A program made the position numbers and the translations under genes. The notes beneath the pieces were generated by a model. The model saw only the letters and a list, made by a program, of their open reading frames with translations, did not search any database and was not told the origin of the DNA. A stretch of 64,000 bases of DNA from Candidatus Saccharimonadota bacterium (GTDB lineage: Bacteria > Patescibacteriota > Saccharimonadia > CAILAD01 > BJGX01). This document shows positions 10,559-62,413 of the stretch, piece after piece (the stretch's first letter is position 1; each line of letters opens with the position of its first letter). The stretch spans positions 141,931 to 205,930 of the forward strand of contig JACPPH010000002.1 of the NCBI GenBank assembly GCA_016191105.1, in the 5' to 3' direction.

Positions 10559-10614
10559 CCTTCCAGAGTCGATAATATTATATCTTGTTCAAGCTTAAGC
10601 GTAAAGCAGATTAA

Positions 10615-11451
10615 CTAGGTGTTTTTGCGCCAGTTAGACCTAGCCTGTCTATGTACAGCCCACACAAATTTAGGGATAGCCAGCTGGCGGCCGATTCGGC
10701 TGGGCTGCCGAAACAGCCGCCAGAGCCACTCTAGTCCGGATTTTTGAATCCAAGCTGGCGCCCTCCTAATCTGACCTCCAAGCTCATCATAATCAAAGCT
10801 GCCACCCTCACCTATCATCAGCTTGACCCCTACGTATTCGCGATACTTGGCCATAAACAATTCTTGCTTGGGAAAGCCCATAGCCACGAAGAGAATATCT
10901 AACTTACTACTAGCTATGTCCGCTACTAATTTTCGTTCATTACTGAGATCATAATACCCACTCCATGATTCGACTCGCGACAATCCAGGAAATCGCTTGA
11001 TTAAACTCTGAGCGGTCATTTCGTGGTTGATCGGCCCGCCCAAGACCCCTATCTTGTAATGCTTTTTTTCGGCCAACTTTAGAATTGGTACCGTTAAATT
11101 AATTCCGGCCATTTTCTCAGGGATTATTTGGTTGCGCCAGGTCATTTTTTGCATATTTACCAAGCCACTCCAAGCTAGTCGGAAGAGATTGGGTCGGCTA
11201 CGAGGCTTGCCGTACAGGTAGCTGGCTGCCCACTGCAGCGACACTCCATCTGCCAAACAGAGCATAGACTGATTTAGTATTTTCTGAAGCGCAGCATCGT
11301 CTTTGGCTAATGATAAAAATTCGACGTAAGGCTTGGTAATGTAGGTCGGTGGACTGCTAGATTCCAATCTGTCCTCGACAATTTTTAGTACTTCTGATTT
11401 TGTAACAGGATCGATTAAGACTCCCAGTATATCAACCTGGACTCTATTCAT
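10615..11451 (-). CDS. WecG/TagA/CpsF-family glycosyltransferase
   Basis: 278 aa. The family-typical C-terminus GLEWLWRLFRQPSR is present. Overlaps the upstream GT gene by 8 nt. Confidence 0.75.
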   Translation of the reverse strand: MNRVQVDILGVLIDPVTKSEVLKIVEDRLESSSPPTYITKPYVEFLSLAKDDAALQKILNQSMLCLADGVSLQWAASYLYGKPRSRPNLFRLAWSGLVNMQKMTWRNQIIPEKMAGINLTVPILKLAEKKHYKIGVLGGPINHEMTAQSLIKRFPGLSRVESWSGYYDLSNERKLVADIASSKLDILFVAMGFPKQELFMAKYREYVGVKLMIGEGGSFDYDELGGQIRRAPAWIQKSGLEWLWRLFRQPSRIGRQLAIPKFVWAVHRQARSNWRKNT

Positions 11452-29396: not shown

Positions 29397-30311
29397 TTAT
29401 AGCTTAAGGTGGCGAGCAATTGCCAACAAGCTCGAAACAGCCCCAATTACGACACCAGTCAAAACCAAGCCCAGCACAACCAATATAATATGCGACTGAA
29501 AATACTGCAGGGTAGAGCCAGCGTTAAGTCTATCCGCTAAGAATGGTCCAACCGAGCGAGCAAATGGCACCAATAGCAGCAAGGCAATAAAAGCCCCAAA
29601 GGCTCCGTACATTGAGCCCTCCACCAAGAAAGGACCGCGTATAAACCATTTAGTGGCCCCTACTAACTTCATAATTTCGATCTCTTCACGGCGTGTAAAA
29701 ATAGCCATGCGTATGGTATTAAAGATTACCAGTAGGGCTACCACCAAAAAAATCATACTCAAGACTAAGCCAATGCGTGATACAGCATTGCTAATTTTAA
29801 TCACATTTTCAATCACCCCTTTGCGGTTGTTATCACGGTTATCGTAGCTAGTATCTGAAATCACTTTATTATCATCGAGCGCGCGGATCTTGCCGTTGGT
29901 ATCACCAATCTGGTCTAAACTTTTAAGCTTAACTTGAAAACTAGCTGGCAAGGGGTTCCCGATCTCAGTGGCCGATTTGGCCAGCTGGCCACCTTCGGAG
30001 CTGCTGCTGGCTAGTTGGTTTAGAGCGTCGGCCTTACTAACAAAAGTTACCGACTGAACGTTGTCCACTGTCAGCATTCTACTTTGGAGATCTTTTATAT
30101 TATCGGCTGGGGCTTCGTCGCTTAAGAAAATAGTCAAATCGATTTTATTTCTTACTTCAGCCAGTTGGGTACGCACAAACATAGTTGAGAACACAAAAAA
30201 TGTCATTATTAGAAGAGTGATCACCATGATAGCGGTGGCCGCCGTACTGAGCCAGGCATTGCGAAAAGTGTTGCGAAAACCACTCTTGAATATGCGCCAA
30301 AAAGTAATCAC
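29397..30311 (-). CDS. ftsX: Cell-division ABC transporter permease FtsX
   Basis: 304 aa, four TM segments with a large first extracytoplasmic loop. 4-nt overlap with ftsE. Confidence 0.85.
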   Translation of the reverse strand: MITFWRIFKSGFRNTFRNAWLSTAATAIMVITLLIMTFFVFSTMFVRTQLAEVRNKIDLTIFLSDEAPADNIKDLQSRMLTVDNVQSVTFVSKADALNQLASSSSEGGQLAKSATEIGNPLPASFQVKLKSLDQIGDTNGKIRALDDNKVISDTSYDNRDNNRKGVIENVIKISNAVSRIGLVLSMIFLVVALLVIFNTIRMAIFTRREEIEIMKLVGATKWFIRGPFLVEGSMYGAFGAFIALLLLVPFARSVGPFLADRLNAGSTLQYFQSHIILVVLGLVLTGVVIGAVSSLLAIARHLKL

Positions 30312-30988
30312 AGGCTATATCTTCCTATCTTTTCGTCTTTTACTACCCGGCCTCGGTTTATTGTAATCACCCGTTTTTTAAGAGCATTTACAATTTCTTT
30401 GTTGTGAGTTGTGAGCAGCACGGTTGTGCCAAATCGGTTGATCTTTAGCAGCAATTCAATAATATCCCAAGAATTTTTGGGGTCGAGGTTGCCGGTCGGT
30501 TCGTCGGCTATCAATATTTTTGGATTACGAATTAAGGCACGAGCAATTGCCGTACGTTGCTTCTCGCCGCCCGAGATTTCACTGGGGTAGTTGTGAGCTT
30601 TTTCGCTCAAACCTACTAGTTGCAATATTTTGGGCACAGCCCGTTTGATTTCGCGGGTTCGAACGCCCGAAACTTCGAGCGCAAAAGCTACGTTTTCATA
30701 CACGGTCAAATTGGGTAAAAGCTTATAATCTTGAAACACCACTCCAATTCGGCGTCTTAGGTGTGGAATGTTAGACTTATCGATAGTGTCATAGTCGATT
30801 GAACCAACAATAATCTTGCCACTAGTCGGCACATCTTCCTTAATGAGTAATCTAATCAAAGTACTTTTGCCGGCACCCGAAGCCCCCACAATGGTTACAA
30901 ATTCTTTGGGTTGAATATGCAAAGAGACGCCAGAAAGCGCCACGGTTTTATTAGGATAAATAACCGATACTCGATCGAGCAATATCAT
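30308..30988 (-). CDS. ftsE: Cell-division ABC transporter ATPase FtsE
   Basis: 226 aa. Walker A GASGAGKST, signature ISGGEKQR, Walker B ILIADEPTGNLD. Confidence 0.9.
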   Translation of the reverse strand: MILLDRVSVIYPNKTVALSGVSLHIQPKEFVTIVGASGAGKSTLIRLLIKEDVPTSGKIIVGSIDYDTIDKSNIPHLRRRIGVVFQDYKLLPNLTVYENVAFALEVSGVRTREIKRAVPKILQLVGLSEKAHNYPSEISGGEKQRTAIARALIRNPKILIADEPTGNLDPKNSWDIIELLLKINRFGTTVLLTTHNKEIVNALKKRVITINRGRVVKDEKIGRYSL

Positions 30989-31041
30989 CGTGTACTCATT
31001 GTAGCACTATCGCTATGCGCCGTAAAACTTATGTTTGCCAG

Positions 31042-32130
31042 CTAATTTTTTGATTTCAGCTGCCAGTCTAAGTAAGCTTCAATTAGGGGCTCGAGCTTAC
31101 CTTCGAGCACACCCGACACATCATTAGTTTCGTAGTCACTACGGTGATCCTTAACTTTGGTGTAGGGCTGCATAACATAGCTGCGAATTTGCGCACCCCA
31201 GTCGGCGGATTTGGTTTGGCCGCTAAGTTTAGACACATTTTCGGCTTTGGCCTCTCGTGCCAATTCATTCAGGCGAGATAACAATATCTTAAGTGCAGCT
31301 TGCTTGTTTTTGAGCTGTGAGCGTTCATTTTGTACGCTCACAGTAACTCCGGTTGGAATATGGGTAATCCGCACTGCACTGTCGGTGGTGTTCACGCTTT
31401 GACCGCCACGGCCGGAGCTTCGAAAAGTATCAATTCGCAAGTCACGCTGGTCAATTTCGCTGTCTTCATCTTCTATTTCAGGAACCATATCAACCAGAGC
31501 AAACGAGGTTTGGCGCAGGTTTTGAGCATTAAATGGGCTGAGCCGCACCAATCGATGAACACCCTTTTCGGCTTTCAAGAGCCCGTAGGCAAACGGCCCA
31601 CTTATGCGCACGGTTGCACTCTTAATGCCAGCTTCTTCGCCGTACGAGGTGTCAAGCACTTCGGCCTTCAGGCCTTGGCGCTCAGCATACTTTAGATACA
31701 TTTCCATGAGTATTTGAGCCCAGTCGGCCGCATCGGTACCGCCGACACCAGCTGTTATTTGTATAATTGCCGGTGACTTATCATATTCACCATTGAGCCT
31801 AACAGCCACCATAGCTGCTTGGATTCGCTTTTCTAGATCCTTAGTTAAGCCCTCAAACTCCTCAAGCTGTGTGTTATCGGCTGTCTCGGCCAATTCTAGG
31901 GTTGTTTGCACATCATCTTGGAGTCTATGCCAGTCGACCAGATATTTTTTAAGCTCAGCTGCCCTTCGGCTAACTTCTTCGGCTCTTGACTGATTAGACC
32001 AAAAATCGGCCGACTGCATATCGGCCTCGAGTTTGGCTATCTGTTCAGCATCTTTGTTTAAAGCCAACACCTCCATGGCTCTTTGGACTTCAGCTAGCAA
32101 GCTGGAAAGTTTTTCGATTATTGGTTTCAT
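31042..32130 (-). CDS. prfB: Peptide chain release factor 2 (single uninterrupted frame)
   Basis: 362 aa. SPF tripeptide (RLSPFNA) and GGQ (SGRGGQSVN). Confidence 0.93.
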   Translation of the reverse strand: MKPIIEKLSSLLAEVQRAMEVLALNKDAEQIAKLEADMQSADFWSNQSRAEEVSRRAAELKKYLVDWHRLQDDVQTTLELAETADNTQLEEFEGLTKDLEKRIQAAMVAVRLNGEYDKSPAIIQITAGVGGTDAADWAQILMEMYLKYAERQGLKAEVLDTSYGEEAGIKSATVRISGPFAYGLLKAEKGVHRLVRLSPFNAQNLRQTSFALVDMVPEIEDEDSEIDQRDLRIDTFRSSGRGGQSVNTTDSAVRITHIPTGVTVSVQNERSQLKNKQAALKILLSRLNELAREAKAENVSKLSGQTKSADWGAQIRSYVMQPYTKVKDHRSDYETNDVSGVLEGKLEPLIEAYLDWQLKSKN

Positions 32131-32156
32131 AGCTTATATTATACCTTTTATGTACC

Positions 32157-32189
32157 AAAAAGACCCGCTGATTACTCATTGGGTCTTTT
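32157..32189 (-). terminator. Rho-independent terminator after the LPQTG surface-protein gene
   Basis: Stem AAAGACCC/GGGTCTTT flanking a 14-nt loop. On the minus strand it is followed by TTTTT. Confidence 0.65.
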
Positions 32190-32206
32190 GGTTAGCTGCT
32201 TTCTAA

Positions 32207-33484
32207 TTACTTCACGTTACGCAAGGCAATTGAGACAGCTTTTTTGCTTTTTCGCAGAGCATATACACTGTAGCTGATACCAGTCATACCAAGCATGCCA
32301 GCCACACCACCCGCAACACCAGTCTGTGGCAAAGTTGTTGGCTGAGACGGTGTAACTGGAGTTACTGGAGGAGGTGTTGGTGTTAGTGGTGTCGGGGTAG
32401 GAGGCTTAGGTGGAGTAAAACTGGCTGTACTACAGACGTCTTCGCGGGTTTCGTTAGAGCCTGTACAGGCAACATTATCAACAGTTGTTACTGTAGCCGG
32501 AATGTTGTCTTTCACCTTAGCCAAAAACTGAATGTTACCATCGGCATTTGGCGAGTAATCACCCACCATCACGCCCTCACGGAACAATGCAGTATCATTT
32601 AGCTGTACGCCTTGGGGTTGGGTCACTAGATACATCTTTACCGACCCAGGCACAATATCAACGTATTGTGGCAATTTATCGGTTACTACCACTTGGCGCA
32701 TAACTGCATTGCCGGTATTCTTGTAGTTGATGTTGTACTTTACAATGTCGCCTGGTTTGGCAGCCATAGTCTTCTGCCAGTTACCGCTACCGGGCACACT
32801 AATTTCTTTGTTTATTTTTAGATTCGATGCAGTCACTTTAACCTTAATGGTCACAAGCAGGCCGTACTGAAAACAGCCCTTGACATTACCGTCGGGGCCA
32901 GTCTCGCCAATTGGTGCACCATCGCCTACAATGCTATCGGCTAGCTTGTAGCCGCCTGGCACACTGTTGGTGTAGGCTGTGGCGCTTCCTTGCTCATACT
33001 CTAAGTTAAAAGGCTGGGTACTTTTTAGATCCACACTAGCAGCCACCGTACCTGGCTGGGCATTGCTAGCTGAAATGTAGCTGATCGAACGTAGCGCCGT
33101 GTCATTGCCGGCTGGCACCAAAATTTTAACTTTGGTGTTGCGAGCAATACCAGCGCCACTAGCGTTCAGGCTAGAATCTGCGCCGTTGTGTACATAAGTA
33201 CGCATCAGCAGCTCTTGGCCTTCACGAACCTGCATGTTATCGGTAAAACCGCCTTCACTAGTGTTAGCGGCGTCTTTTACAGTGTAGAACTCGCGCTCAT
33301 CGCCATAGTTGGGGGTGCCCACAAAGGAGTTAAATGTAACATAGTCAAAGCCAGCCACACCAGGTGTGTACTGCTTAACTGGTCGCTCTGGACTCCAGTC
33401 TGCTACTGCCATGACAGGAACTAAGATCCCAATCACAACAATGCCGATCACAGAGGCCAGCTTACGCAAAACATTCTTTTTCAT
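32207..33484 (-). CDS. Secreted surface protein with C-terminal LPXTG (LPQTG) sortase signal
   Basis: 425 aa. Signal peptide/TM at the N-terminus, beta-rich repeats, Pro/Thr stalk, LPQTG (32318-32332), then a hydrophobic stretch and an RKSKK tail. SD AAAGGAG. Confidence 0.8.
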   Translation of the reverse strand: MKKNVLRKLASVIGIVVIGILVPVMAVADWSPERPVKQYTPGVAGFDYVTFNSFVGTPNYGDEREFYTVKDAANTSEGGFTDNMQVREGQELLMRTYVHNGADSSLNASGAGIARNTKVKILVPAGNDTALRSISYISASNAQPGTVAASVDLKSTQPFNLEYEQGSATAYTNSVPGGYKLADSIVGDGAPIGETGPDGNVKGCFQYGLLVTIKVKVTASNLKINKEISVPGSGNWQKTMAAKPGDIVKYNINYKNTGNAVMRQVVVTDKLPQYVDIVPGSVKMYLVTQPQGVQLNDTALFREGVMVGDYSPNADGNIQFLAKVKDNIPATVTTVDNVACTGSNETREDVCSTASFTPPKPPTPTPLTPTPPPVTPVTPSQPTTLPQTGVAGGVAGMLGMTGISYSVYALRKSKKAVSIALRNVK

Positions 33485-33815
33485 AAGCTATAAGCTCCTT
33501 TCATAGAAGTATTAGTTAATTAAATAGCGTTCTCGTTCGGTTGTGTATATGCAATGTAAAAGGACTTTTGTATCTATTGAGCAGTAATGGTACTATATTA
33601 TACGCTTTAAGTCAATAGATAATTGTTATGTTTTTGCAGGGTTTTTCGAAAGGCCCTGAGATCAAGTTTTTTATGAAAGCCTGATCTCAAAGACTTATAG
33701 TTTCGGGTGGGTGTCGTCCCGGAGACCGAAGTCTCCAGGACGAGCGACACCCAAGAGTGGACTCTGTGTGCCATCGCACCGCGAATTGAGTCCGCTAATT
33801 CGCGGTGTTTAAGCC

Positions 33816-35306
33816 CTAGGCGGGCTTGGGCGACGGACCGGGCGGGGCCGTCGTGGGTGGCACCGGCGCCGAGCTGGGCGGCGTTGCCCTGGTGGTGGGC
33901 GGGCTTCCCCCCGGGCACAGCTGCGGACAACCGGTGCTCGGGTTCGGCACTCCTGGATTGATGTCCGGGTTGGGCGGCCTGGGGGTCACCCCACCGCAGC
34001 CACTTGGACCACAGCCTTTCACCGGCGCCGGCACAGCCGGATTGCTGATAGGCTGCTGCTCGGCGATCTTGCCCTGAGGCTTGGTCGTCGGCGTCGTCAC
34101 CGTCGGCGGTGGGATGGTCGGCCCTCCCGTCGGCGGGGGCGTCACCGTCGGCGGTGGGATTGTTGACTCCGGTGGCAGGTTTGGCGGAACCGGCACCTGC
34201 GGCACGTTCGGCGTGGGCTTGAGCGACCCCCTGTTCCCGCACGAGGCGAAGAACATGATGTATGCGTTGTCCTTCCAGAACTTCACGTACAGCCGGGGCG
34301 TGCTGGTGACGTAGTCGAACTGCACCACGGTACCGTTTTGCACGACTGTGTTGTACAGGCGGGTACCCGCTGGCAACACTCCACGTTCCACCATGGAACC
34401 TCGAACGAAGTCCAGCACGATGAACAGATCCCAACCGGCCTTGGCGGCATCGCCGACCGGGCGGGGGTCCTCGTAGGGCTTGTCTTGGCTGGCCATGATG
34501 GTCCGCGCCGCATCGTCCAAGAATGCCGGGCTGCCAACACCCTTCAGGAGCAAGTCGGAGAACATGTCCTCCGGCGTGTTTCCTTGGATGCCGTTGAGCA
34601 CAACACACTTGGTCTCACACGTCACGCCCACTCCCTGTACGAGGCCACGGCGCTGGGCAATCTTCTGAACGAAGATGGCAAGGTCGACGGTGTCGGGCTG
34701 ATGCGGTGGCGCCGTGCTTGGCGGTGTGGTAGCCATAGTTGTTGGCGCAGCTGTGCCTTGCGGTTGTGTCCCGCTCGGTACTGCCGTGGTGGTGGAAGGA
34801 GCCGTGGTGTCGCTGGGCGATGTGCTTGGCGTTGAACCACCCCCGTTGCTGGTGGTGGTAGTGACGCCGGCCAGGATTGCGACGCACTTGGTGTCTGGCG
34901 GGTCCACTCCGAGTTGCTTGAGCTTGTCGGAGCTTTCCTGCACCACCTTGGCGTCGTCGCTGCCAACTCCCTGGCACAACTCGACTGTCAGCTTGAGACA
35001 TTCGGTCGGCGTGATGCCGGCCTCTTGCAGCTTCTTGTCGTCGTCGGAGTTGTTGGTGACTCCGATCCGCTTCTGGCAGTCCTCCAGACTCACCTTGGCC
35101 TTGCGCTCTTCGGTGGTTGCGGGCGGAACAGACGCGGTCGGCGCTGGCACCTGGGTGGTGTCGGAGCCTTGAGGCCCAGGTGATTGCTGGGTTGGTTGGG
35201 CACTCGCAGTGCCGCTTTTGGCTGCAATACCGGCTACACCCACCGCCCCCAAAAGGACAGTGAACACAACCGCGCAAGCAGCGAAGATCGCATGACCCCT
35301 GGTCAT
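33816..35306 (-). CDS. Signal-anchored secreted protein, Pro/Thr-rich linkers, Cys-containing domains, unknown function
   Basis: ATG at 35306 preceded by GGAGGTGA. MTRGHAIFAACAVVFTVLLGAVGVAGIAA anchor, a globular middle, and a PPPTVTPPPTGGPTIPPPTVTT tail. The ORF-track upstream extension to 35387 has no SD. Followed by an 11-bp perfect hairpin at 33777-33807. Confidence 0.7.
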   Translation of the reverse strand: MTRGHAIFAACAVVFTVLLGAVGVAGIAAKSGTASAQPTQQSPGPQGSDTTQVPAPTASVPPATTEERKAKVSLEDCQKRIGVTNNSDDDKKLQEAGITPTECLKLTVELCQGVGSDDAKVVQESSDKLKQLGVDPPDTKCVAILAGVTTTTSNGGGSTPSTSPSDTTAPSTTTAVPSGTQPQGTAAPTTMATTPPSTAPPHQPDTVDLAIFVQKIAQRRGLVQGVGVTCETKCVVLNGIQGNTPEDMFSDLLLKGVGSPAFLDDAARTIMASQDKPYEDPRPVGDAAKAGWDLFIVLDFVRGSMVERGVLPAGTRLYNTVVQNGTVVQFDYVTSTPRLYVKFWKDNAYIMFFASCGNRGSLKPTPNVPQVPVPPNLPPESTIPPPTVTPPPTGGPTIPPPTVTTPTTKPQGKIAEQQPISNPAVPAPVKGCGPSGCGGVTPRPPNPDINPGVPNPSTGCPQLCPGGSPPTTRATPPSSAPVPPTTAPPGPSPKPA

Positions 35307-35529
35307 CCGATCACCTCCTTGTTGTTGTCTGGGTGATGTAAAGCTGCGAACTGGGTGCAGGTTTTCTCTCCTGTACTCAGCCCACATATCAGATTACACT
35401 CTTTTCGTCTATACACAAGTATAAATCTCACATTTGGGTTGAGCGGGTGGCGCCCGGCGGGAACTCGATCCGAAGATCGAAGCTCCCTGCCGGGACCACG
35501 AGGTAGGGGCCAGAACGTCATCCTGACCG

Positions 35530-36006
35530 CTACTTTGTGCCGTGCTTGAACAGCGCCGTGCAGCCGATGATGCCACCGATCACAAACGGGGCAAGAAATG
35601 CCACGATCCGTGGCCCGCCTGCGTCCGTGAGCATGGCAGCCACGACTGCACTGCAGATTGCTGCGAACACCGTTGCAAAGCAGCCCATGAGCACGCCCAC
35701 AAGGATGTGGAGGCTCTTGCCATTGGCTGGGTCTGCGCCGCCGCCAGCGGGTGGCGGCGGTGTGGCGGCATTGGCCGATGGATCGCGTGTGAGGAACCAG
35801 AAGGTCCCCCCTGCGCCACCCAGGCCAACCACCAGGGCGGTGAGGAATCCATACAGCCACGACCAATTGAGTCCTGCGACTACAAGGGTCACGAGCAGCA
35901 GGACTCCGCCAATCACCCCGCTGATGATCAGCTGGGTTTGCTGGTCGAGCCCACCTCCGGGCGATGGGGCCGGCGCGGCATAGCGCGCACGGTTGAAACC
36001 AGGCAT
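35530..36006 (-). CDS. Small integral membrane protein (about 4 TM), unknown function
   Basis: ATG at 36006 preceded by GAAGGTGG. 158 aa with four hydrophobic segments and a Pro/Gly/Ala loop. Followed by hairpin 35453-35494 with a central CGAA loop. Confidence 0.65.
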   Translation of the reverse strand: MPGFNRARYAAPAPSPGGGLDQQTQLIISGVIGGVLLLVTLVVAGLNWSWLYGFLTALVVGLGGAGGTFWFLTRDPSANAATPPPPAGGGADPANGKSLHILVGVLMGCFATVFAAICSAVVAAMLTDAGGPRIVAFLAPFVIGGIIGCTALFKHGTK

Positions 36007-36027
36007 AATGCCCACCTTCTTTCGTAT

Positions 36028-36106
36028 ATGTTCGGGAGCGGTACCTGGTCGTGAACTTCATTGTTCATGTGCCCTCACGGGGGCAATATACCAGGATAGC
36101 GATCCT
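36028..36106 (-). repeat. Promoter/operator/leader module, copy 1 (upstream of the 4-TM protein gene)
   Basis: Minus-strand reading: AGGATCGCTATCCT palindrome, TATATT, GCCCC, GTGAGGGCAC, stem-loop CATGAAC..GTTCACG, GACCAGGTACCGCTC, CGAACAT. Near-identical to 36469-36545. Confidence 0.75.
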
Positions 36107-36172
36107 GAAATTGTGGGTCACGAGCGGCCGCGCTCCGGGGTAAACCGGAGCACAGCCTCTCGCGTGGCGAGA

Positions 36173-36454
36173 TCACGTGAGCACTTGGTCGATGATCTCG
36201 AGCATTGCGGCCTTGAACGCCTTGTTGGCATCTTCGTCCACAACGTCCGGGAAGGACTTCAAGAAGTCGGGGCCACAGAGGTCGATCATGGCCTGCACGC
36301 CTTCCTTGTTGAACTTGACCGTGCCGCCGCCGCTGATCTCCAGTTGCTCGAGAGCAACCTTCTGCAGCAGCTCCAGGGCGCGGGCCTTCATGGCCGGGTC
36401 GGCGTCGGCTGTTGCCGACTTGGACTTCTCGTAGCGGTCTTTGCTGAACGCCAT
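36173..36454 (-). CDS. Small acidic protein (93 aa), paralogous to the C-terminus of the 415-aa protein
   Basis: ATG at 36454 preceded by AGGAGA. MAFSKDRYEKSKS...FLKSFPDVVDEDANKAFKAAMLEIIDQVLT. The long ORF-track extension (to 37117) is an out-of-frame shadow across the upstream gene. Confidence 0.65.
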   Translation of the reverse strand: MAFSKDRYEKSKSATADADPAMKARALELLQKVALEQLEISGGGTVKFNKEGVQAMIDLCGPDFLKSFPDVVDEDANKAFKAAMLEIIDQVLT

Positions 36455-36468
36455 GATGATTCTCCTGC

Positions 36469-36545
36469 ATGTTCGTGAGCGGTACCTGGTCGCGAACCGA
36501 AGTTCACGTGCCCTCACAGGGGCAATATACCAGGATAGCGATCCT
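36469..36545 (-). repeat. Promoter/operator/leader module, copy 2 (upstream of the 93-aa gene)
   Basis: Same module as 36028-36106. The stem-loop here is CGTGAAC-TTCG-GTTCGCG, so the loop sequence differs while the stem is retained. Confidence 0.75.
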
Positions 36546-36570
36546 AACATTCTGTTGAGTTGGCCGGGGA

Positions 36571-36599
36571 GCTCCGCTGCACACAGTGTGCAGCGGAGC
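36571..36599 (-). terminator. Perfect 14-bp GC-rich hairpin after the 415-aa gene (no U-tract)
   Basis: GCTCCGCTGCACAC-A-GTGTGCAGCGGAGC, 27 nt downstream of the TAG at 36627-36629 and immediately upstream of module copy 2. Confidence 0.6.
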
Positions 36600-36626
36600 C
36601 AACCCCGTTTACCGCTCCCGGTAAAT

Positions 36627-37874
36627 CTAGTCGTCGGCGAAGACCTCCTCGATGATGTCGAAGAACGCGGCGTAGAACACGTCGCGATCGGACTCGAAGT
36701 CACCGTTGGGATACTTCTCGAGGTAGAGGTTGAGGGCGCAGAACGCCACATCGGTGATCCCTTCCTCACTGAACGACCATGGCTTGCGAAGCGGGTCGCG
36801 CGCCCACATGCCGACGGGTGTGCGCTCGATGCACTGCTTGGCTGTCGCCACACGCGCGTCGAAGTTCGGTGGCCGAACATTGGAGCGTTGCTGTCCCGAA
36901 GGACCGCCGCGCGAACCAGCACCCGAACCACTGCTACCACCCGGTCGACTCGACGAGCCGCCACTGGCGCCAGCACCCGACCCGGACTTGGGCCGTGCGC
37001 CTCTGCCAGAGGAGCCACCTTGCGAGCCGCGTGGTCGTTGCCCATTGCCGCCGTTGCGAACGAAGATCCCCTCGAGATTCTCTCGAGTGATGTCGTCGTT
37101 CCGGTCCGGATGGGCAAACGCCAAGACGCTTCGCCAGCAGAACTTGGCCCACTTCTTGCGGTCGCCGTAGGTGAACTTCTCGCCCTTCGGGTCCACCTTG
37201 CGAGCCTCGGCCTCGAAGATCACCATGATCTGGGTCATCCAACCCCGGTACTGGCGATACAAGTCCTGCTCTTCTGGTGTACGACGCGCGAAGGCGGTGA
37301 AGCGCGCCAGGTTGTCGTCGTCTCGTGGTGGCGCGCCGAACTCGGCATGCAAACCCTGGACACCCGAGAAGTTCTCGCGGATGCCAGAGATCGCGGTGTT
37401 CAGCTCTGTGATCTCTCGATCGTTCATGTCGTCTCCCTCCTGGGGGTCTTTGGTTCCCCCCGGAGGGGATGTAGGTTCTGGTTCTTCTGCAAGATCGAGC
37501 ATGAGCGTGACGATGCCACGCTTAACCATCTCGAAGCTGGCGTTGGCTTTGCGTGTCGCGTTGAGGTTGACCCCAACAATCCGACGCACGAGCCGCCACG
37601 GCTCGGGGTCTTGCTCGGTCGCTTGTACGGGTATGCCTTGTGCTTCGAGCCATGGCACCCAGTCTTCGTAGGAAAGGGTTGGCTCGGGGTCTTCGCCTTC
37701 TGGTGGTGTGTCACCTGCCCCTGAATCTTCAAGGACTTTACCAAGTGCCACCAAGAAGTCTTCTTCACCCACCTGTCCGTCATCGGCAAGCTTGTCGCCC
37801 AGTTCAACAATGAGCTTGGGCTTAAGGTCGATCGAAACTTCCAGGTCAGCACATAGCGTTTCGAGATGCGGCAT
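36627..37874 (-). CDS. Acidic 415-aa protein with a J-domain-like HPD motif and a Gly/Ser-rich linker, function unknown
   Basis: ATG at 37874 preceded by GAGGAGGG. KKWAKFCWRSVLAFAHPDRNDD (HPD codons 37112-37104) resembles DnaJ helix II plus the HPD loop. It is followed by a roughly 55-aa G/S/R-rich stretch and a C-terminal domain alignable to the 93-aa protein. Confidence 0.7.
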   Translation of the reverse strand: MPHLETLCADLEVSIDLKPKLIVELGDKLADDGQVGEEDFLVALGKVLEDSGAGDTPPEGEDPEPTLSYEDWVPWLEAQGIPVQATEQDPEPWRLVRRIVGVNLNATRKANASFEMVKRGIVTLMLDLAEEPEPTSPPGGTKDPQEGDDMNDREITELNTAISGIRENFSGVQGLHAEFGAPPRDDDNLARFTAFARRTPEEQDLYRQYRGWMTQIMVIFEAEARKVDPKGEKFTYGDRKKWAKFCWRSVLAFAHPDRNDDITRENLEGIFVRNGGNGQRPRGSQGGSSGRGARPKSGSGAGASGGSSSRPGGSSGSGAGSRGGPSGQQRSNVRPPNFDARVATAKQCIERTPVGMWARDPLRKPWSFSEEGITDVAFCALNLYLEKYPNGDFESDRDVFYAAFFDIIEEVFADD

Positions 37875-38124
37875 TGCTTCCCTCCTCGGGTAGTGCCCCG
37901 GGAGGGGCGTCTTGTTTACTGTTACCTACAGGAGCCTGCGTACGGCATTCAATCTTGGGCGGCAAGATCGCTTACACGTACACAGGTGCCTGTAGGCAGT
38001 TTGTAAACTAAAAAGCAGGTAAAATAGCCTGTTCTATACGAACAAGCAACCCTCCTGCCTACTTATTTAGGGAGCGGATATTTCAAATTGAACGATCCAT
38101 AGCCTAAGCTATGAACTCGGAAAC

Positions 38125-38153
38125 AATATACTACAAAACTATCGTTTTGTCAA
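38125..38153 (-). promoter_or_regulatory. Consensus sigma70-type promoter pointing into island 1
   Basis: Minus strand: TTGACA (38153-38148), a 17-nt spacer, then TATATT (38130-38125). Lies just after the stop of the 38164-38511 gene, about 250 nt upstream of the 415-aa start. Confidence 0.5.
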
Positions 38154-38163
38154 GTATTTTCTA

Positions 38164-38511
38164 CTATTTTTGGTATTCAGCTCGTAGTGCTTTTCGAGCT
38201 TCAGATACGTCTTCGAACAGCTCGGTTTTCATGCGCCTAATCTCTTCGGCTACAATTGCCTGGTAGTCGAGTACATGATCGTTCAGGTATTGCCCCACCT
38301 TGGTGTCATCACCTGCATCCATTAACACTACAAGCTCGTTAAGCTCAGTCTCGGTTAAGGCATCTATAATTCGAACCGCCAACCTGTTCTGAACAATCTC
38401 GGCCATAGTATCCAGCAGTTCAGCCTTTTGTTCATCCGAAACAGCTTCGATCCCCAGCTCTTTAAAAAGTACAACCCCAAATTGATCTGTTGGGATTTTT
38501 TGATTGTCCAT
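38164..38511 (-). CDS. Hypothetical small acidic helical protein
   Basis: 115-aa ORF with backbone composition, starting 3 nt after the upstream gene. Confidence 0.55.
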   Translation of the reverse strand: MDNQKIPTDQFGVVLFKELGIEAVSDEQKAELLDTMAEIVQNRLAVRIIDALTETELNELVVLMDAGDDTKVGQYLNDHVLDYQAIVAEEIRRMKTELFEDVSEARKALRAEYQK

Positions 38512-38513
38512 TG

Positions 38514-39893
38514 TTACTTTTTCTCCTTATCTTTCTTATCTTTGCGTCGTTTTTGAATAATAAACTCAGCCAAACCAAAGCCACCGGCCACAGCCGAAGC
38601 ACTTACGGCATTTGGCACCTCGCCGGCCAACGATACGCCCGCAACCGCCGCTGAGCCTATTAAGCCCAACCCTACAGACGTAGCTATCTTATACCGATTA
38701 CCTCTACCCTGTTTGGCCGCCTCTTTACTCTCCGATTCCAGCTCGTAATTTAGGGCCTTGCCTACAATATTTGCAACCTCCCTAGGTTTGTTGTTATAAA
38801 TCCAGTTTTCTATGCCGCCTACCTGAGATGGTTTTATACCGCTACCCCTCGTTCTGGCAAGCTCATTCTCGGCCTTTTGCATGTTTAAAAGCATAAGCTG
38901 AACTTCTTGGGGCAGCTCCTGGCCAGTGGTGGCGTTATTAATAAAGGCCTGAGCCTCAGGGCTTAAGGTCTCTCCAGGGACATTGTTAACCCTATATACA
39001 AATGTGTCGAGTACAGCCTTGCCGGAGGCATTGTTTTCTGACAGTATCTTATTGAGATCTTTCTGGAGGTTCTTTTCTTTGCGGCCCTCTCGAACTGTTT
39101 CCTGTCCTCTATCTATATTGCCCCTGGCAGCCATATATCCTCCTAAGCCAATCATGGCCGGAGCAGGTGCAAAGCCCAACATGGTGGCCCCAACCCCACC
39201 TACCATCAACCCTATACCAAGGCCTACCCTTAGCCCAGGGTGTCGGGCTAGGAATGCTCCCGCTCTACCACCTTTGCGGGCCGCCTTGGCAGCGGTTTCG
39301 GACTTAGCTCTCTCGCAGCGCTCATTTGCAACCATCATCAACAGCTGAACCTGGGTCTCGGGCTTTTCCAAGACTTCTAAATTGTTTCGGTTTACCAGCT
39401 CTTTCATATTTTGTTTCACCTGGTTTTGCAGCTCCTGATTATATTGAGCTTCGGCATCTAAAATGTCCTGCTTACCAAAGCCCAGCCATCTGGCAAAAAC
39501 TGACTTTTGTTTTTCCCTGGCCACAGCAAGGGTATTTCTGGCTTTTTCTAGATCGGTCAGCTTGGGGTCGGTTGCAAACTCTTTATCTCTCTGGGTAGCC
39601 CAATCAAAAACCTTGTTGCCACCACGAAATATACTCTCTGCAGCGTTCTTTACGCCCCTGCCAAGCTCTTTACCGACTGTTTTGGTGGCATCAACTATCT
39701 TGCCAACATCCATCGAGCCCTCGTCGCCCCGTAATCTCGAAGAAGAGGCAGCTTCAGACTCGGCACGCATGTTTTTTAGGTCATCATAGACGTTTGAGCT
39801 GGCGCCAGAGTCACTAGACTTTTCACCAGAATCCTTTGGCCCAAAATTTACGTTATAATTTCCAGGCGAACTGCTGTATGCTTCAGCACTCAT
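38514..39893 (-). CDS. Hypothetical membrane protein (disordered N-terminus, coiled coil, Gly-rich TM segments, Lys-rich tail)
   Basis: 459-aa ORF. Hydrophobic glycine-zipper-like segments GLGIGLMVGGVGATMLGF and VGLGLIGSAAVAGVSLAG. Confidence 0.55.
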   Translation of the reverse strand: MSAEAYSSSPGNYNVNFGPKDSGEKSSDSGASSNVYDDLKNMRAESEAASSSRLRGDEGSMDVGKIVDATKTVGKELGRGVKNAAESIFRGGNKVFDWATQRDKEFATDPKLTDLEKARNTLAVAREKQKSVFARWLGFGKQDILDAEAQYNQELQNQVKQNMKELVNRNNLEVLEKPETQVQLLMMVANERCERAKSETAAKAARKGGRAGAFLARHPGLRVGLGIGLMVGGVGATMLGFAPAPAMIGLGGYMAARGNIDRGQETVREGRKEKNLQKDLNKILSENNASGKAVLDTFVYRVNNVPGETLSPEAQAFINNATTGQELPQEVQLMLLNMQKAENELARTRGSGIKPSQVGGIENWIYNNKPREVANIVGKALNYELESESKEAAKQGRGNRYKIATSVGLGLIGSAAVAGVSLAGEVPNAVSASAVAGGFGLAEFIIQKRRKDKKDKEKK

Positions 39894-39938
39894 AGTTACC
39901 TCTGATTATAGTTTAATTTACAGATCAACGCAAACAGC

Positions 39939-41243
39939 TTATGCTGAGCCTAGCAGTTCTTTGAGCCTTGACTCAATTTGATCTGGCATATAGCTCCTGT
40001 GCCACTTTTTATAGTCGTAATCTGGGCGTGGAAACACAAAACGAGCCAATTCTGGATAGTCGCCGCTATCTTTGGCTATTTGCATGGCCGTGCGTACCTC
40101 GGCGATTTCGCCCACGCACTCTAGCGGCTTAATGCCATCTAAGCCTAACATCTGCTCGAAGGTACCACGTAAATTATTATCGGCAAACAAGTCGCGACCA
40201 TTGAATATCTCCATAAGCTCGGCTTTTTTTAGAAAAGGCGAGAATATAGTGTACACAAAGGCGCATTTAGGGCATTGGCCGCACCAGCTAAGCTTGTCTT
40301 TTTTATCCAAGTAAAAGTTACCATTGCAGCTCGAGAACAAGCCTTTGTATTTATCGAAGTAGTCTCGACAAAAAATCTCGGCAATTCGCAACTCGCTCAA
40401 AGGTCGCAAAACTGAATAAAAGTCCATATTAGCAGCTACATTATCTTTCAGGTATTTGTCCATAATAACCTCAAACATTGAGCTTTTTGAATATTGGTGG
40501 TTTACCGGCAGGTCTTTCCAGGTGGTGTTGGGTTCATCAGTTGAGGATTCAACCGCCCAAACCAAGCTCTTTTTGCCGGTTAAAATAGCCAAAACTGCCC
40601 CCATAAAGCCAATAATGGCCGTGACCGGCACATGACCGTTGTAGGCATCTTGCTCGTTAACCTCTTTTAGCTTGGGGTCGATTTGCCGGTTTATGCCAAA
40701 GCTTGGCTTGCCAATTTTATCTAGCAGGGGCTTAAACCGGTCGTGATGATAAACCACCCAGGTGAAATAATCCTCGCCTAACTTGTCTAACAACTCAGCG
40801 GCAACTATTGAATCCTTACCGCCTCCAACAGCCAGCAGCGAGCCTTTTAAATCTAGGCTTGGAGCCGGGCTGGCATGATCTGAACCCGCTGGAAACTTGG
40901 CAACCACAGCCGGATCAAGCTGGTTGGTATACAAAAACTGGCTTAAGCCATACAGATAAACGTCGTCGAAAAACGCCTTTTGAGCCGAATTAAGTCCACC
41001 TTTTTTAACGACTATCTCGGGTGCAAGATAAGCTTTGTAGTAACTAATGCCGGCCATTATCCACAAGCCAAACAAGACCCGATCGAATGCGGCTTGGTCG
41101 TAGCCTGCTGGATCGAGATTATCCCAGATTATTCGCTCCTCGAACTTAAGCTCGCCATCGAAGCTGTACTTTAAGGTCGCTATGTTAGCTTTGGTATCAA
41201 AGCTGTAATCTTCAAATATAAACTGTTTATACTTTGGCTTCAT
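39939..41243 (-). CDS. murL: PP-loop (GGGKDS) ATP-utilising protein; candidate MurL-type UDP-MurNAc-L-Ala-L-Glu epimerase
   Basis: 434 aa with a 4-nt overlap with murD. PP-loop-like LLAVGGGKDSIVAAELL and a CGQCPKC cluster. The gene order matches the published MurD2-MurL pair. Assigned by context and motif only. Confidence 0.45.
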   Translation of the reverse strand: MKPKYKQFIFEDYSFDTKANIATLKYSFDGELKFEERIIWDNLDPAGYDQAAFDRVLFGLWIMAGISYYKAYLAPEIVVKKGGLNSAQKAFFDDVYLYGLSQFLYTNQLDPAVVAKFPAGSDHASPAPSLDLKGSLLAVGGGKDSIVAAELLDKLGEDYFTWVVYHHDRFKPLLDKIGKPSFGINRQIDPKLKEVNEQDAYNGHVPVTAIIGFMGAVLAILTGKKSLVWAVESSTDEPNTTWKDLPVNHQYSKSSMFEVIMDKYLKDNVAANMDFYSVLRPLSELRIAEIFCRDYFDKYKGLFSSCNGNFYLDKKDKLSWCGQCPKCAFVYTIFSPFLKKAELMEIFNGRDLFADNNLRGTFEQMLGLDGIKPLECVGEIAEVRTAMQIAKDSGDYPELARFVFPRPDYDYKKWHRSYMPDQIESRLKELLGSA

Positions 41244-42565
41244 TTTAACTTTCTCACTGCTTCTATAAACTGATCGCCGCGGTCTTCGTAATTAGCAAAC
41301 ATATCAAAACTCTTGGCGCCAGGTGACAGCAACACGGCATCGCCGGCTTGAGACGACTTTGCGGACATCGTTACGGCTTCTGACATGTTTTGGGCCTTGG
41401 CATACTCAACCTTTCCGCCTAGTTGAGCGGCAAGACTATTGGTAGTGCTACCAATCAATATTATTTTTTTAACCTTATTATCTATAAGTTGTGACACTAA
41501 TTGGCTGTAGTCCTGATTGTCGTCTTGGCCGCCCAAAATTAATACTTTTGGCTTGCTAATAGCCTCTGTCGCCACCCTGGCGGCAGTTGGGTCTTTAGAT
41601 ATTGAGTCGTCAACATATTCGACACCGCCAATCTCACTAATAGTTTGTAACCTGTGTGGCAAGCCCCCAAATTCAGACAGCACCTTAGAGTAAACAGTCT
41701 GGCCATCCACCAGATCAAATACGGCTGCACAAGCAGCACAGACATTATCTAACACATGGGCTCCGCGCATTTTAACATCGGTGGTCTTGGCAACTTGGTG
41801 TTCACCAACCAAGATCCGACCATCTTCCACCCTCGCCGCAGCTGGGTCGGTAGAACCTCTATCAAACGGGATTTTTGTTTTAGCCTGCGAGGCTTCGGCG
41901 GCTTGCTTCACCTTCTCGTCGCCAGCATAGAAGACCGCTACATCATCGGGCTTTTGGTAGCAAAATATATTAGCCTTAGCCTGCATATAGCCTTCAACAC
42001 TAGGATGTATATCTAAGTGATCTGGCTCAATCATTAAGTGTACAGCTATGTGCGGACTTTGCTTGATGTCGGCTAATTGAAAACTAGACAGCTCAAAGAC
42101 CACCCAATCTTTGGCGCTAACTTGCCCTAAGCTTTCCAGTGGAGCATCACCGATATTGCCAATCAGATGAGCTGTTTTGCCATCGGCTTTTAAAAATTCT
42201 GCTATCAACGAACTTGTGGTGCTCTTACCTTTAGTGCCGGTAACGCCAATTATGGGAGCTGGGCACTTAGTAAAAAATTCTATGGTGTTCGAGGTGATGG
42301 GCGCCGTGGTTTTAATGCGATGTGGCAGAATATCGGCTGTGCGCACCACTAGATCGAAGTTGTCGAGCAAGCCTGCAAAATCGGTGTTGCGCAGGACCTC
42401 CTGTAACTCCACATTGGCTGGAAGATTGCGAATCGGTGAGTTTTGGGCTGCTTGGGGGTTTTTGTAGTAAAACACCGTGCAATCTGAGCCTTGATTGCGA
42501 AAATAATCTAAGGCCGCGCGACCCTCACGGTTGTAGCCTAGTATTGCAACTCTTTGGTTAGACAT
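41240..42565 (-). CDS. murD: UDP-N-acetylmuramoyl-L-alanine--glutamate ligase (MurD family; possibly the L-Glu-adding MurD2 type)
   Basis: 441 aa. Mur ligase P-loop GVTGTKGKSTT with central and C-terminal Mur ligase domains. Confidence 0.85.
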   Translation of the reverse strand: MSNQRVAILGYNREGRAALDYFRNQGSDCTVFYYKNPQAAQNSPIRNLPANVELQEVLRNTDFAGLLDNFDLVVRTADILPHRIKTTAPITSNTIEFFTKCPAPIIGVTGTKGKSTTSSLIAEFLKADGKTAHLIGNIGDAPLESLGQVSAKDWVVFELSSFQLADIKQSPHIAVHLMIEPDHLDIHPSVEGYMQAKANIFCYQKPDDVAVFYAGDEKVKQAAEASQAKTKIPFDRGSTDPAAARVEDGRILVGEHQVAKTTDVKMRGAHVLDNVCAACAAVFDLVDGQTVYSKVLSEFGGLPHRLQTISEIGGVEYVDDSISKDPTAARVATEAISKPKVLILGGQDDNQDYSQLVSQLIDNKVKKIILIGSTTNSLAAQLGGKVEYAKAQNMSEAVTMSAKSSQAGDAVLLSPGAKSFDMFANYEDRGDQFIEAVRKLK

Positions 42566-54479: not shown

Positions 54480-55460
54480 TAGAAATGAAGAAGGGGCCCG
54501 AAGACCAGTGGTCGCGATGATCTCGCGAACCCCTTCTTCAGACCCCTGTGGGGACTGTCCCGTGCTACTAGTCCGACCAGACTTCCGGTGCGCTGTGCCG
54601 GGTTTGCCGGGCGCCATGCCAGTCGGTCTCGAGCAGAACCCGATTGCTGGCCAAGTTCCACTCCAGACGAGGAACCCCCACCCATGTGCCGTCTGGCAGG
54701 CAGAGCTCATAGCCAGCCATCTCGACGTAGGGCAGACGCTTGCCATCCTGCTGCTGAAGCAGCTTGGGGTGGTAGGCGTAGGCCGCCAAGACCTCAGCGT
54801 GGGCCAAGTTCCTGGACTTCTTCTCGGATCGCTGACAGATGTTGCCAACCATCCGACCTTTCGAGGGCTCCCAGTTCGCCAACAGATCGATGTGGACCAG
54901 GTGGATGCCCCGCTCGTAGTTGCACGCAGAGGAGTTGAGACGGAGATGATCCGCATCGGCGCACATACGTTCGGCACGAGTGTTGTCATGATCAACGCGG
55001 ATCACTCGCCACCACGTCTCGAAGGTGGCATCGGGCGAGCCGAGGTCGACATAGAGCAGCAACAGGTCGTCGATCTGTTGCGCATGCTCCAGATCGTCCT
55101 CACTGAAGACACGCTCGAAGTCCTCGTCGCTGAGGGCGTAGTTCCAATACCCGGCGTTGTATTCACGCAGGAGCGCCATCTGCTCATGGATTGTCAACAG
55201 CTGAGCGTTGTAGCGGTCATACAGGCCCTCAACCGAGAACTTGCCGTCCACCAGAGCTTGCAGCCCCGCGATTGCCTCGTCAGCTGGACGCTTGCCACTC
55301 TTGACGAATTCGAAGAGGCGGTTGTACACCACCCCCAGGTCGCCGAGCTCCTGTCGTGTAGCTCTCTTGGCCATCTTAATGGCCTCCTTTGCCGGTGTTC
55401 ATCCACGCTTACACTGTGTCGTGCATCGTGGTCTCAAGCCTCAGCTTGAGAGCGGCGCTT
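54480..55460 (-). other. High-GC island 2: single ORFan gene between the CPBP protease gene and mreB
   Basis: 38/60 G+C at 54601-54660. Shadow ORFs on both strands. AT-rich backbone sequence on both flanks. Confidence 0.75.
54568..55374 (-). CDS. Hypothetical 268-aa cytoplasmic protein, no recognised family
   Basis: ATG at 55374 preceded by AAGGAGG. Balanced amino-acid composition, unlike the Arg/Pro-rich overlapping ORFs. A GC-rich compound hairpin at 54487-54539 lies 28 nt after the stop. Confidence 0.65.
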   Translation of the reverse strand: MAKRATRQELGDLGVVYNRLFEFVKSGKRPADEAIAGLQALVDGKFSVEGLYDRYNAQLLTIHEQMALLREYNAGYWNYALSDEDFERVFSEDDLEHAQQIDDLLLLYVDLGSPDATFETWWRVIRVDHDNTRAERMCADADHLRLNSSACNYERGIHLVHIDLLANWEPSKGRMVGNICQRSEKKSRNLAHAEVLAAYAYHPKLLQQQDGKRLPYVEMAGYELCLPDGTWVGVPRLEWNLASNRVLLETDWHGARQTRHSAPEVWSD

Positions 55461-62295: not shown

Positions 62296-62413
62296 TGCCA
62301 GGCTCCTTTGCTGTACCTTGGGGCGTACCCCTACCAGTATCGTTGCGTCGTCGCAGGTTTGCGACAATCAAGCTAATTGAACCATTAGCGGAGTTCATAT
62401 GCAAACGTAACAG

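Follow-up and report, generated by a model that had tools for sequence, protein, structure and literature searches.

Capsule and O-antigen loci, like the mosaic surface-protein genes of naturally transformable bacteria, are swapped by homologous recombination between conserved flanks. Here, we describe a locus in Saccharibacteria that resembles them in its fixed slot, its conserved flanks, its mosaic blocks, and its naturally competent host. The locus is a GC-rich block of four genes, A to D, in a 64,000-nucleotide (nt) stretch of contig JACPPH010000002.1, which we call the window and to which all coordinates without a genome label refer. A sequence-only reading of the window had seen in the block a horizontally acquired, functionally coherent module and a candidate for an undescribed system. 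Our analysis bears out the coherence of the module and finds its protein families undescribed, but it does not uphold a recent acquisition. We consider it likely that the block is a conserved, resident, recombining cassette. The complete account that we favor, of a long-resident and clade-conserved envelope cassette that recombines in a fixed slot between a DUF5663 gene and an LPXTG-DUF11 gene, we hold with modest confidence, as slightly better than an even prospect.

The block, its four genes, and the two genes that bound the slot are as follows (protein lengths in amino acids [aa]).

32207 to 33484, minus strand: LPQTG surface-protein gene, 425 aa, DUF11/TIGR01451, backbone GC; the constant partner of the cassette
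33700 to 37995, no strand: GC-rich block, 61.7% G+C versus 47.2% in the remaining window, bordered on both sides by large hairpins
33816 to 35306, minus strand: gene D, 496 aa, predicted to be exported, with one N-terminal hydrophobic segment, 15% Pro, 12% Thr, and 12 Cys
35530 to 36006, minus strand: gene C, 158 aa, Gly/Ala-rich membrane protein with four hydrophobic segments
36173 to 36454, minus strand: gene B, 93 aa, acidic (pI 4.73), without a hydrophobic segment
36627 to 37874, minus strand: gene A, 415 aa, acidic (pI 4.75), without a hydrophobic segment, predicted to be all-helical and cytoplasmic
38164 to 38511, minus strand: DUF5663 gene, backbone GC; the upstream marker of the slot in all lineages

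Composition and distribution of the cassette

The jump in G+C that had been read off single lines of sequence holds at every scale. Windows of 1 kb contain 59 to 63% G+C from 34,001 to 38,000 and 41 to 54% in the backbone, where 300-nt windows average 0.472 (standard deviation, 0.044); in 200-nt windows, G+C climbs at about 33,700 and drops at about 37,990. The G+C fraction at third codon positions (GC3) is 0.70 to 0.85 in the four genes of the block and 0.40 to 0.59 in every backbone gene, rpsB, tsf, frr, and mreB included, while the fraction at four-fold degenerate sites is 0.65 to 0.86 versus 0.51 ± 0.06. First and second codon positions are likewise GC-enriched in the block genes, and the spacers between them contain 52 to 61% G+C over 166 to 289 nt, compared with 31 to 45% over 27 to 119 nt in the backbone. 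The compositional shift therefore extends beyond amino acid composition. The block is also filled with long overlapping open reading frames (ORFs) in all six frames, as previously noted. The choice of four minus-strand genes among them is supported by orthologs in other genomes and by ratios of nonsynonymous to synonymous substitution rates (dN/dS) well below 1, and each of the four is preceded by a GGAGG-type Shine-Dalgarno sequence 5 to 8 nt ahead of its ATG.

The window DNA occurs in an NCBI metagenome-assembled genome (MAG) of Candidatus Saccharibacteria (locus tags HYX70_01155 and HYX70_01140), and a Logan contig assembled from run SRR12113392, probably of the same sample, has the identical arrangement with identical junctions. 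A word-indexed search of 5.8 billion proteins returned no relative of A, and an exhaustive phmmer scan of 1.84 billion representative proteins returned only four. D has seven relatives among the 5.8 billion proteins, at 38 to 63% identity, and all seven come from Saccharibacteria contigs of various samples and assemblers in which they occupy the identical slot, between DUF5663 and LPXTG-DUF11 next to prfB. Among the GTDB species representatives, D is present in a single genome, a Saccharibacteria MAG with the same slot. Neither protein set contains a homolog of A to D outside Saccharibacteria contexts, actinobacterial ones included, and there is no match to A to D in INPHARED (50,697 phage records; blastn and tblastn), in the PLSDB plasmids, or in IMG/VR. 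A scan of JGI metagenome contigs with a D profile was also without a match. The earlier label of ORFans is thus half right: A and D do have relatives, all of which are confined to Saccharibacteria.

Every D-carrying locus has a block with 61 to 65% G+C between flanks with 45 to 49%, and every D-carrying contig has the same gene order: secA, FKBP, mur genes, a variable membrane protein, DUF5663, the cassette, LPXTG-DUF11, prfB, and ftsEX. The genomes involved are not close relatives: the identities of these loci to the window are 57 to 71% for PrfB, 52 to 53% for the Mur ligase, and 68 to 78% for FtsX. Other Saccharibacteria thus have the block as a whole, with gene order and slot unchanged, which makes it a coherent module. 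Its presence at the same position in every relative examined, with PrfB and Mur ligase only 52 to 71% identical, contradicts the proposed recent acquisition, and the suggested check for co-occurrence in Actinobacteria, phages, and plasmids led only to Saccharibacteria contexts. The distribution is not patchy either, as a GC-rich cassette fills the slot in every related locus examined.

More distant genomes were reached by using the LPXTG-DUF11 neighbor as a handle. Two lineages with backbones of 39 to 43% G+C (L018 and L019) carry cassettes of similar build in the DUF5663-to-LPXTG slot. Each encodes an acidic protein of the cytoplasm, a membrane protein with a coiled coil, and an exported protein whose core contains Cys (KLDCGFQP) and whose tail is poly-Pro/Cys; L018 adds a further soluble protein. 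Their slots reach 50 to 62% G+C in places, with GC3 up to 0.74 versus 0.30 to 0.37. The D-like protein of L019 (8621 to 9661) has an unbroken run of about 40 prolines ahead of its Cys-containing tail. A scan of metagenome contigs with the LPXTG-protein profile yielded 76 loci. Thirteen of these have DUF5663 upstream, and all 13 show a slot with more G+C than their remaining sequence, the excess being 4.9 to 17.4 points (mean, 7.8). In each of the 19 lineages for which there is a flank value, GC3 is higher in the slot than in the flanks; the difference runs from about +0.02 to +0.35 and is highest in the clade of the window. The slot always holds two to five rapidly evolving genes whose families are unknown, and their layout recurs: at least one acidic cytoplasmic protein, one small protein of the membrane, and one exported protein that ends in a tail rich in Pro and Cys. 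Two cassettes (L014 and L015) retain C and D and have no genes in the A and B positions.

One genome also carries the set outside the usual slot. In L020 (GCA_028286345.1, 821-kb contig; 1 to 11551), a C-like gene (69% G+C), a D-like gene (64% G+C), and an LPXTG-DUF11 paralog lie together, between a gene for a PA14/RHS-repeat protein of more than 2,300 aa and a serine recombinase gene. The triad of C-like, D-like, and LPXTG-DUF11 genes is a recurring core, and its L020 copy may be duplicated or mobile. Because the triad recurs at another genomic site, the cassette is probably functionally linked with the LPXTG gene, and the adjacency of the two, as claimed from the sequence of the window, is confirmed by the gene at 32207 to 33484, whose product carries a C-terminal LPQTG, a hydrophobic stretch, and a basic tail, in this order.

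Sequence similarity across these lineages is sparse. The tail of D in the window is 63% identical to that of L015 (hhalign, 96%), and the D cores of L015 and L018 match marginally (E = 5e-4). The A-like and C-like proteins of the distant cassettes show no detectable similarity to those of the window, and the match of the L020 D-like protein to the D profile is not significant.

Recombination and the persistence of high GC

We compared five related genomes (L003, L011, L017, L006, and L016) whose flanks are 84 to 96% identical. Within D, stretches without a single difference alternate with stretches that diverge by 25 to 45%, and the pattern of sharing shifts along the gene. L016 carries A and B of the window type, while L003, with flanks 84 to 87% identical to those of L016, carries unrelated types in these positions; the gene in the B position switches type together with A. 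The A proteins have a common N-terminal module and a PPGG..PEEG motif, joined to at least two unrelated C-terminal halves. L015, the closest to the window by its flanks, holds a different cassette that shares the tail of D only. The mosaic of identical and 25 to 45% divergent blocks in such close genomes indicates that the cassette is reshuffled by homologous recombination, with both allelic and modular replacement. Saccharibacteria are naturally competent and recombine with flanks of about 1 kb (PMC10633639).

For the same genome pairs, dN/dS is 0.15 to 0.28 in D, 0.01 to 0.03 in the LPXTG gene, and 0.03 to 0.06 in prfB, and orthologous cassette proteins span 0.15 to 0.43. The values for D thus indicate that the genes are real and constrained, but 5 to 10 times less so (or more diversified) than their neighbors. 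The LPXTG-DUF11 gene has a history of its own: it is 92 to 98% identical among L003, L006, and L016, while the adjacent prfB differs by 20 to 33% for L016, which suggests a recent gene-specific exchange or sweep.

The proportion of synonymous differences between the window and L003, L008, or L014 is 0.78 to 0.83 in the flanking genes and 0.65 in D, which is the saturation level at the observed bias toward G and C in third positions. Despite this saturation, GC3 remains 0.69 to 0.79 in the cassettes of the window, L003, L008, and L014. The GC bias is therefore a maintained local equilibrium and not a donor signature. A rough polarized count puts the equilibrium GC at 0.57 to 0.60 for the block and 0.42 for the flanks; these values are indicative, since many of the changes counted are recombination imports.

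Several causes of the bias can be weighed. High expression is an unlikely cause, since GC3 in rpsB, tsf, frr, and mreB (0.50 to 0.59) lies well under that of the block, and amino acid composition can only be a part-cause, as four-fold and spacer GC contradict it as the sole one. GC-biased gene conversion agrees with the signs of recombination and with the raised GC of the spacers. The hairpin-rich leaders described below would suit selection for stable transcripts with much structure. Repeated import from an unsampled high-GC reservoir is conceivable, although no trace of such a reservoir was found. We propose that GC is kept high by gene conversion at a recombination hotspot, by selection on transcripts, or by both.

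Beyond that, it seems unlikely but worth stating that the GC-richness is adaptive and actively maintained in a phylum-wide host-interface cassette. In one version, the genes or their hairpin-capped transcripts would be matched to the high-GC actinobacterial host, with nucleic acid or products acting in or on the host cell; in the other, an exceptionally strong and sharply bounded GC-biased gene conversion would operate at a transformation-driven recombination hotspot. Were either version true, the block would represent a new kind of compositional island, inherited and maintained instead of acquired, and the cassette would also mark the genes that determine the host range of an epibiont.

Elsewhere in the window, three ORFs of 160 to 268 aa without a Pfam match (54568 to 55374, 60681 to 61163, and 61594 to 62367, all on the minus strand) have four-fold GC of 0.65 to 0.74 and, in two cases, GC3 of 0.73, among ordinary genes. 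GC-rich unrecognizable genes may be a general feature of this genome.

Proteins, leaders, and neighbors

The properties ascribed to the four proteins from sequence are as described: acidic A and B, C with four transmembrane segments, and a signal-anchored D rich in Pro, Thr, and Cys. None contains a recognizable domain by Pfam, PHROGs, NCBIfam, or PADLOC. Extending the comparison to PDB sequences and PDB folds gave no match either, and A to D belong to no described family. PHROGs returned nothing at an E value of ≤0.01, with one chance-level match (E = 0.042) to the low-complexity linker of A, and the PADLOC-DB models assigned no family to A to D or to the upstream 459-aa protein.

A begins with a conserved N-terminal module (LSYEDWVPWL...ATRK) and a PPGGTKDPQEGD motif. 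Next come a helical region that contains HPD and a linker rich in Gly and Ser, and the C-terminal domain has a counterpart in B. A short motif, PPG(G/D)T.(D/N/T)PEEG(D), at about residues 134 to 148 of the window protein, is kept in all A-type proteins (L003, L008, P0010, P0011, and P0013), even where the surrounding sequence cannot be aligned, and occurs in two copies in the L003 type. It may be a linear interaction or processing motif. The earlier description of A as J-like does not survive closer inspection. Like the J-domain co-chaperones (DnaJ/Hsp40, PF00226), A has an HPD(R/G/S)N pentapeptide between predicted helices, and in an AlphaFold2 model of modest confidence (pLDDT, a per-residue confidence score, of 58.8), the HPD site lies between two helices. 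It differs from them in lacking any profile or fold match and in the replacement of HPD by HSD in one of the four family members (P0012/L016; HPD is present in the window protein, P0010, and P0011). A and three of its relatives have no Pfam match at an E value of ≤10, a profile of the A family finds no J-domain protein among all PDB sequences, and hhalign against the J domain of Escherichia coli DnaJ (with an approximate query sequence) gives a probability of 1.7% over 15 columns. Foldseek with the same model found nothing in the PDB at an E value of <1 and no J domain among its matches. We therefore rejected A as a J-domain protein on both profile and fold tests, the resemblance being limited to HPDRN.

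B was proposed to be a small paralog of A. It does resemble the C-terminal ~45 residues of A, weakly (BLASTP E = 0.003), and the common end F..AF..I..EVF is visible in the family alignment. The L016 ortholog of B has 94 aa and is 43% identical. A reading of B as a WXG100 protein of a type VII secretion system was considered, but B has no WXG motif, and there is no FtsK-like ATPase gene nearby. The orthologs of C have 174 to 191 aa and are 30 to 42% identical. A 252-aa Arg-rich ORF at 35303 to 36061 (minus strand), called on the Logan assembly, overlies C and the C-D spacer in the wrong frame; it was rejected in favor of C because its GC3 is 0.55 versus 0.71 for the 158-aa frame and because C has orthologs. 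D starts with a hydrophobic segment with ASA-Q, continues through a Pro/Thr linker, a Cys-containing helical domain (~65 to 150), a second linker, and an alpha/beta domain (~240 to 355) with invariant GVTC..C and SCGN, and ends in a Pro/Cys-rich tail with the C terminus ...PPGPSPKPA.

The non-coding elements of the block and its upstream border are as follows.

33705 to 33807, minus strand: terminal pair of strong hairpins 3' of gene D, 103 nt with -54 kcal/mol; right border of the block
35351 to 35494, minus strand: C-D spacer, comprising a GC-rich hairpin 3' of the C stop codon, a promoter-like patch rich in AT, and a hairpin with a GAGAGAAAA loop in the 5' untranslated region
36034 to 36106, minus strand: Y-shaped element, copy 2, leader of gene C
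36475 to 36545, minus strand: Y-shaped element, copy 1 (~72 nt, three-way junction), leader of gene B
37919 to 37999, minus strand: 81-nt hairpin, -47.5 kcal/mol; left edge of the block and 5' leader of gene A
38008 to 38153, minus strand: predicted promoter and ~100-nt unit, AT-rich, between DUF5663 and the block, in six lineages

A strong GC-rich hairpin lies 3' of each gene, and the layout of the terminal pair is kept in other lineages. A direct repeat of about 90 nt ahead of B and C folds as a Y-shaped three-way junction, and the matching leaders in L016 (1138 to 1210 and 1622 to 1703) and one in L003 have the same predicted fold, which is thus seen in five of six leaders overall. In the Y-shaped element, 94% of cells are paired, compared with 21 to 48% in slid controls, and 6 of the 23 pairs have changed on both sides. 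A covariance model built from three copies recovers the fourth (L016, E ~ 1e-5) and finds no copies outside the window and L016. The candidate transcription-factor palindrome GGATCGCTATCC was rejected, as it is the 5' half of the outer stem of this element. The 81-nt hairpin retains its structure and an apical TGCCGCCCA motif in L003 and L008, with five compensatory pairs, and the C-D spacer is 81.6% identical between these two, above the coding DNA, with flanks at about 70%. Given the small number of sequences compared, the Y-shaped and hairpin structures are supported but not proven. The predicted sigma-70-type promoter at 38153 to 38125 (TTGACA-17-TATATT, 11 of 12 matches) precedes a unit of about 100 nt, a hairpin followed by a terminator-like stem and a U-run, that is also kept in lineages without gene A and may act as a small RNA or as an attenuating leader. 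Rfam 15 gave no match at an E value of ≤1 on either strand from 30,000 to 42,000.

The genes near the slot include secA, mur genes, ftsEX, and CHAP, M23, and S41 peptidase genes. The membrane protein gene directly upstream of DUF5663 (38514 to 39893, minus strand) has no family match and varies four-fold in length among lineages (798 aa in L014 and 1,833 aa in L015), with a version in L015 that is partly GC-elevated (53.9%, 3301 to 5400). No sortase Pfam family is found among the called genes within ±10 kb in L001 to L005, L018, and L019, and none of A to D has an LPXTG sorting signal, which is present only on the neighbor at 32207 to 33484. A to D contain no integrase or transposase domain, and there is no tyrosine recombinase among the neighboring gene calls. 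The block has no credible flanking direct repeat, and the nearest tRNA genes are 1.6 and 19.5 kb away. We found no description of the locus or of DUF5663 in the literature.

Competing explanations and comparison with known systems

That a donor with high GC (an actinobacterial host or one of its phages or plasmids, for instance) recently contributed the block, which would still bear the donor's composition, is the explanation suggested by a sharp step of 15 GC points, the shift in GC3, and unrecognizable proteins; cultivated Saccharibacteria do live on high-GC Actinobacteria (PMC10633639), and the GC-rich pair in L020 adjoins a serine recombinase gene. We nonetheless regard a recent acquisition event as largely refuted and as a quite improbable reading, since relatives with PrfB identities as low as 57% all have the block in the same slot, neither an integrase nor a tRNA gene nor flanking repeats accompany it, no homolog turned up outside Saccharibacteria in any collection searched (the two protein sets, GTDB, IMG/VR, INPHARED, and PLSDB), and the bias has outlived synonymous saturation. 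It may still be that the block was acquired once, long ago, in the ancestor of the clade. A domesticated remnant of a small Saccharibacteria-specific mobile element (a prophage, satellite, or integrative element) would explain why every gene comes with a separate leader and with a strong hairpin past its stop codon, why spacers of 166 to 289 nt and structured elements repeated between genes persist in a compact genome, and why the composition is anomalous, and the L020 copy lies near a resolvase gene and a faint match to a terminase small subunit. It is very unlikely given that the same two host genes border the block throughout, that no recombinase, replication, or packaging gene occurs in the slot in more than 20 lineages, and that PHROGs (E ≤ 0.01), phage, plasmid, and IMG/VR searches are empty. 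An origin as a prophage, plasmid, or defense system was likewise discarded, with no match in PHROGs, PADLOC, INPHARED, PLSDB, or IMG/VR.

A competition module of the polymorphic toxin-immunity type, with A as delivery protein and exchangeable effector, B as immunity or helper protein, and C and D for export or targeting, would account for the architecture of A, with its constant N terminus, PPGG..PEEG motif, and at least two unrelated C-terminal halves, for the joint switching of the gene in the B position, for the mosaic alleles, and for the giant PA14/RHS protein gene beside the L020 triad. We doubt it strongly: no library searched contains a toxin, immunity, or secretion domain that matches, A has no signal peptide and no type VII or type VI secretion genes nearby, B is a paralog of the C terminus of A instead of an unrelated binder, and the A and B positions are absent from L014 and L015, where C and D stay. 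An assembly or binning chimera, or non-coding GC-rich DNA with artifactual ORFs, is scarcely credible. High GC does yield long ORFs in six frames, and one annotation chose the wrong-frame 252-aa ORF, yet the junctions are identical in the NCBI MAG and in the Logan contig (probably the same sample), equivalent GC-rich blocks with the same flanks occur in more than 10 other samples, the orthologs are conserved with dN/dS of 0.15 to 0.43, and the chosen frames have the expected GC3 periodicity. An assembly chimera was rejected on the recurrence across independent assemblies.

The reading that remains, of a resident envelope cassette diversified by recombination, also has evidence against it. Cross-lineage homology is demonstrable by sequence only for D, through the chain from the window to L015 to L018, so that "the same cassette" across the phylum is partly argued from position and architecture. 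A dN/dS below 1 makes no case for positive selection, as relaxed constraint gives equal values. The four-fold GC of gene A, at 0.65, is barely over that of the highest backbone gene (0.61). The LPXTG gene was recently exchanged as well, yet its GC is ordinary, which weakens a pure gene-conversion explanation. Lastly, the promoters, terminators, and RNA elements are predictions from three to six sequences.

The envelope reading follows from an exported D with Cys, the four transmembrane segments of C, the LPXTG-DUF11 partner, and neighboring secA, mur, ftsEX, and cell wall hydrolase genes. As this basis is one of topology and context, a specific role as an envelope or host-interface module is a tentative suggestion, possible but not probable. 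On this proposal, the cassette would act at the cell envelope together with the adjoining sortase-anchored DUF11 protein. D would be exported and disulfide stabilized and would span or decorate the wall via its proline-rich tail, with C as its membrane partner; A and B would be cytoplasmic adaptors or chaperone-like partners that switch types jointly. The separate leaders, with their large conserved hairpins and the repeated Y-shaped element, would serve expression, probably through RNA stability or processing. The driver of diversification could be the interface with actinobacterial hosts (or phages), and its route natural transformation. In a cultivated species, transposon sequencing showed adhesins, among other envelope functions, to be essential for epibiotic growth (PMC10633639), and actinobacterial hosts remodel their surface against Saccharibacteria epibionts (PMC13622651), which together make such a driver plausible.

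For the ultrasmall epibionts of the candidate phyla radiation (Patescibacteria), host recognition and attachment are largely unknown, and most envelope proteins have no annotation. The slot described here is easily located by DUF5663 and LPXTG-DUF11, next to prfB, and is present across Saccharibacteria. It evolves 5 to 10 times faster than its neighbors and is swapped between strains. On these grounds it is a concrete candidate for a locus of specificity or of an arms race, and one open to deletion or exchange in a cultivable, naturally transformable species. For island prediction it is a caution, as a sharp GC step with unrecognizable genes here marks an old conserved locus and not a recent transfer. 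An excess of 5 to 17 GC points that outlasts complete synonymous turnover is also not explained by acquired DNA drifting to the composition of its host.

The cassette shares with horizontally acquired genomic islands a sharp compositional break, unrecognizable genes, and intergenic boundaries. It differs from them in that integrase, tRNA, and direct repeats are missing, in a distribution that is not patchy, in the absence of donor homologs, and in being GC-richer than its genome with a bias that outlasts synonymous saturation. Gram-positive sortase and pilus clusters offer a parallel in the exported Pro/Thr-rich D directly upstream of an LPXTG substrate with DUF11 beta-sandwich repeats, a pairing of D-like and LPXTG genes that recurs at a second locus. 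D differs from the proteins of such clusters in having no LPXTG signal, no sortase gene within ±10 kb, and no predicted pilin-like fold. As for integron gene-cassette arrays, the repeated element here is a Y-shaped three-way junction before start codons and not a single hairpin of the attC type.

GC-biased gene conversion at bacterial recombination hotspots, with genome-wide effects, was reportedly described by Lassalle and colleagues in 2015 in PLoS Genetics. Our cassette is similar in combining demonstrable recombination with raised GC3, four-fold GC, and spacer GC. With GC3 raised by 0.25 to 0.35 over a sharply bounded 4 kb, the effect is far larger and far more local than the genome-wide ones, and the adjoining LPXTG gene, in contrast, recombines without GC enrichment.

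The closest parallel remains that with capsule and O-antigen-type loci, which the cassette also matches in having alleles or gene sets with 25 to 45% nucleotide divergence between flanks that are 84 to 96% identical, and in products that are probably directed to the envelope. It differs from these loci in encoding proteins of unknown families instead of polysaccharide synthesis enzymes or known adhesins, in the maintained GC excess of all its alleles, and in the structured leader of each gene. The cassette is best described as a variable envelope locus that is replaced by recombination, is made up of undescribed families only, and carries an unusual, maintained compositional anomaly.

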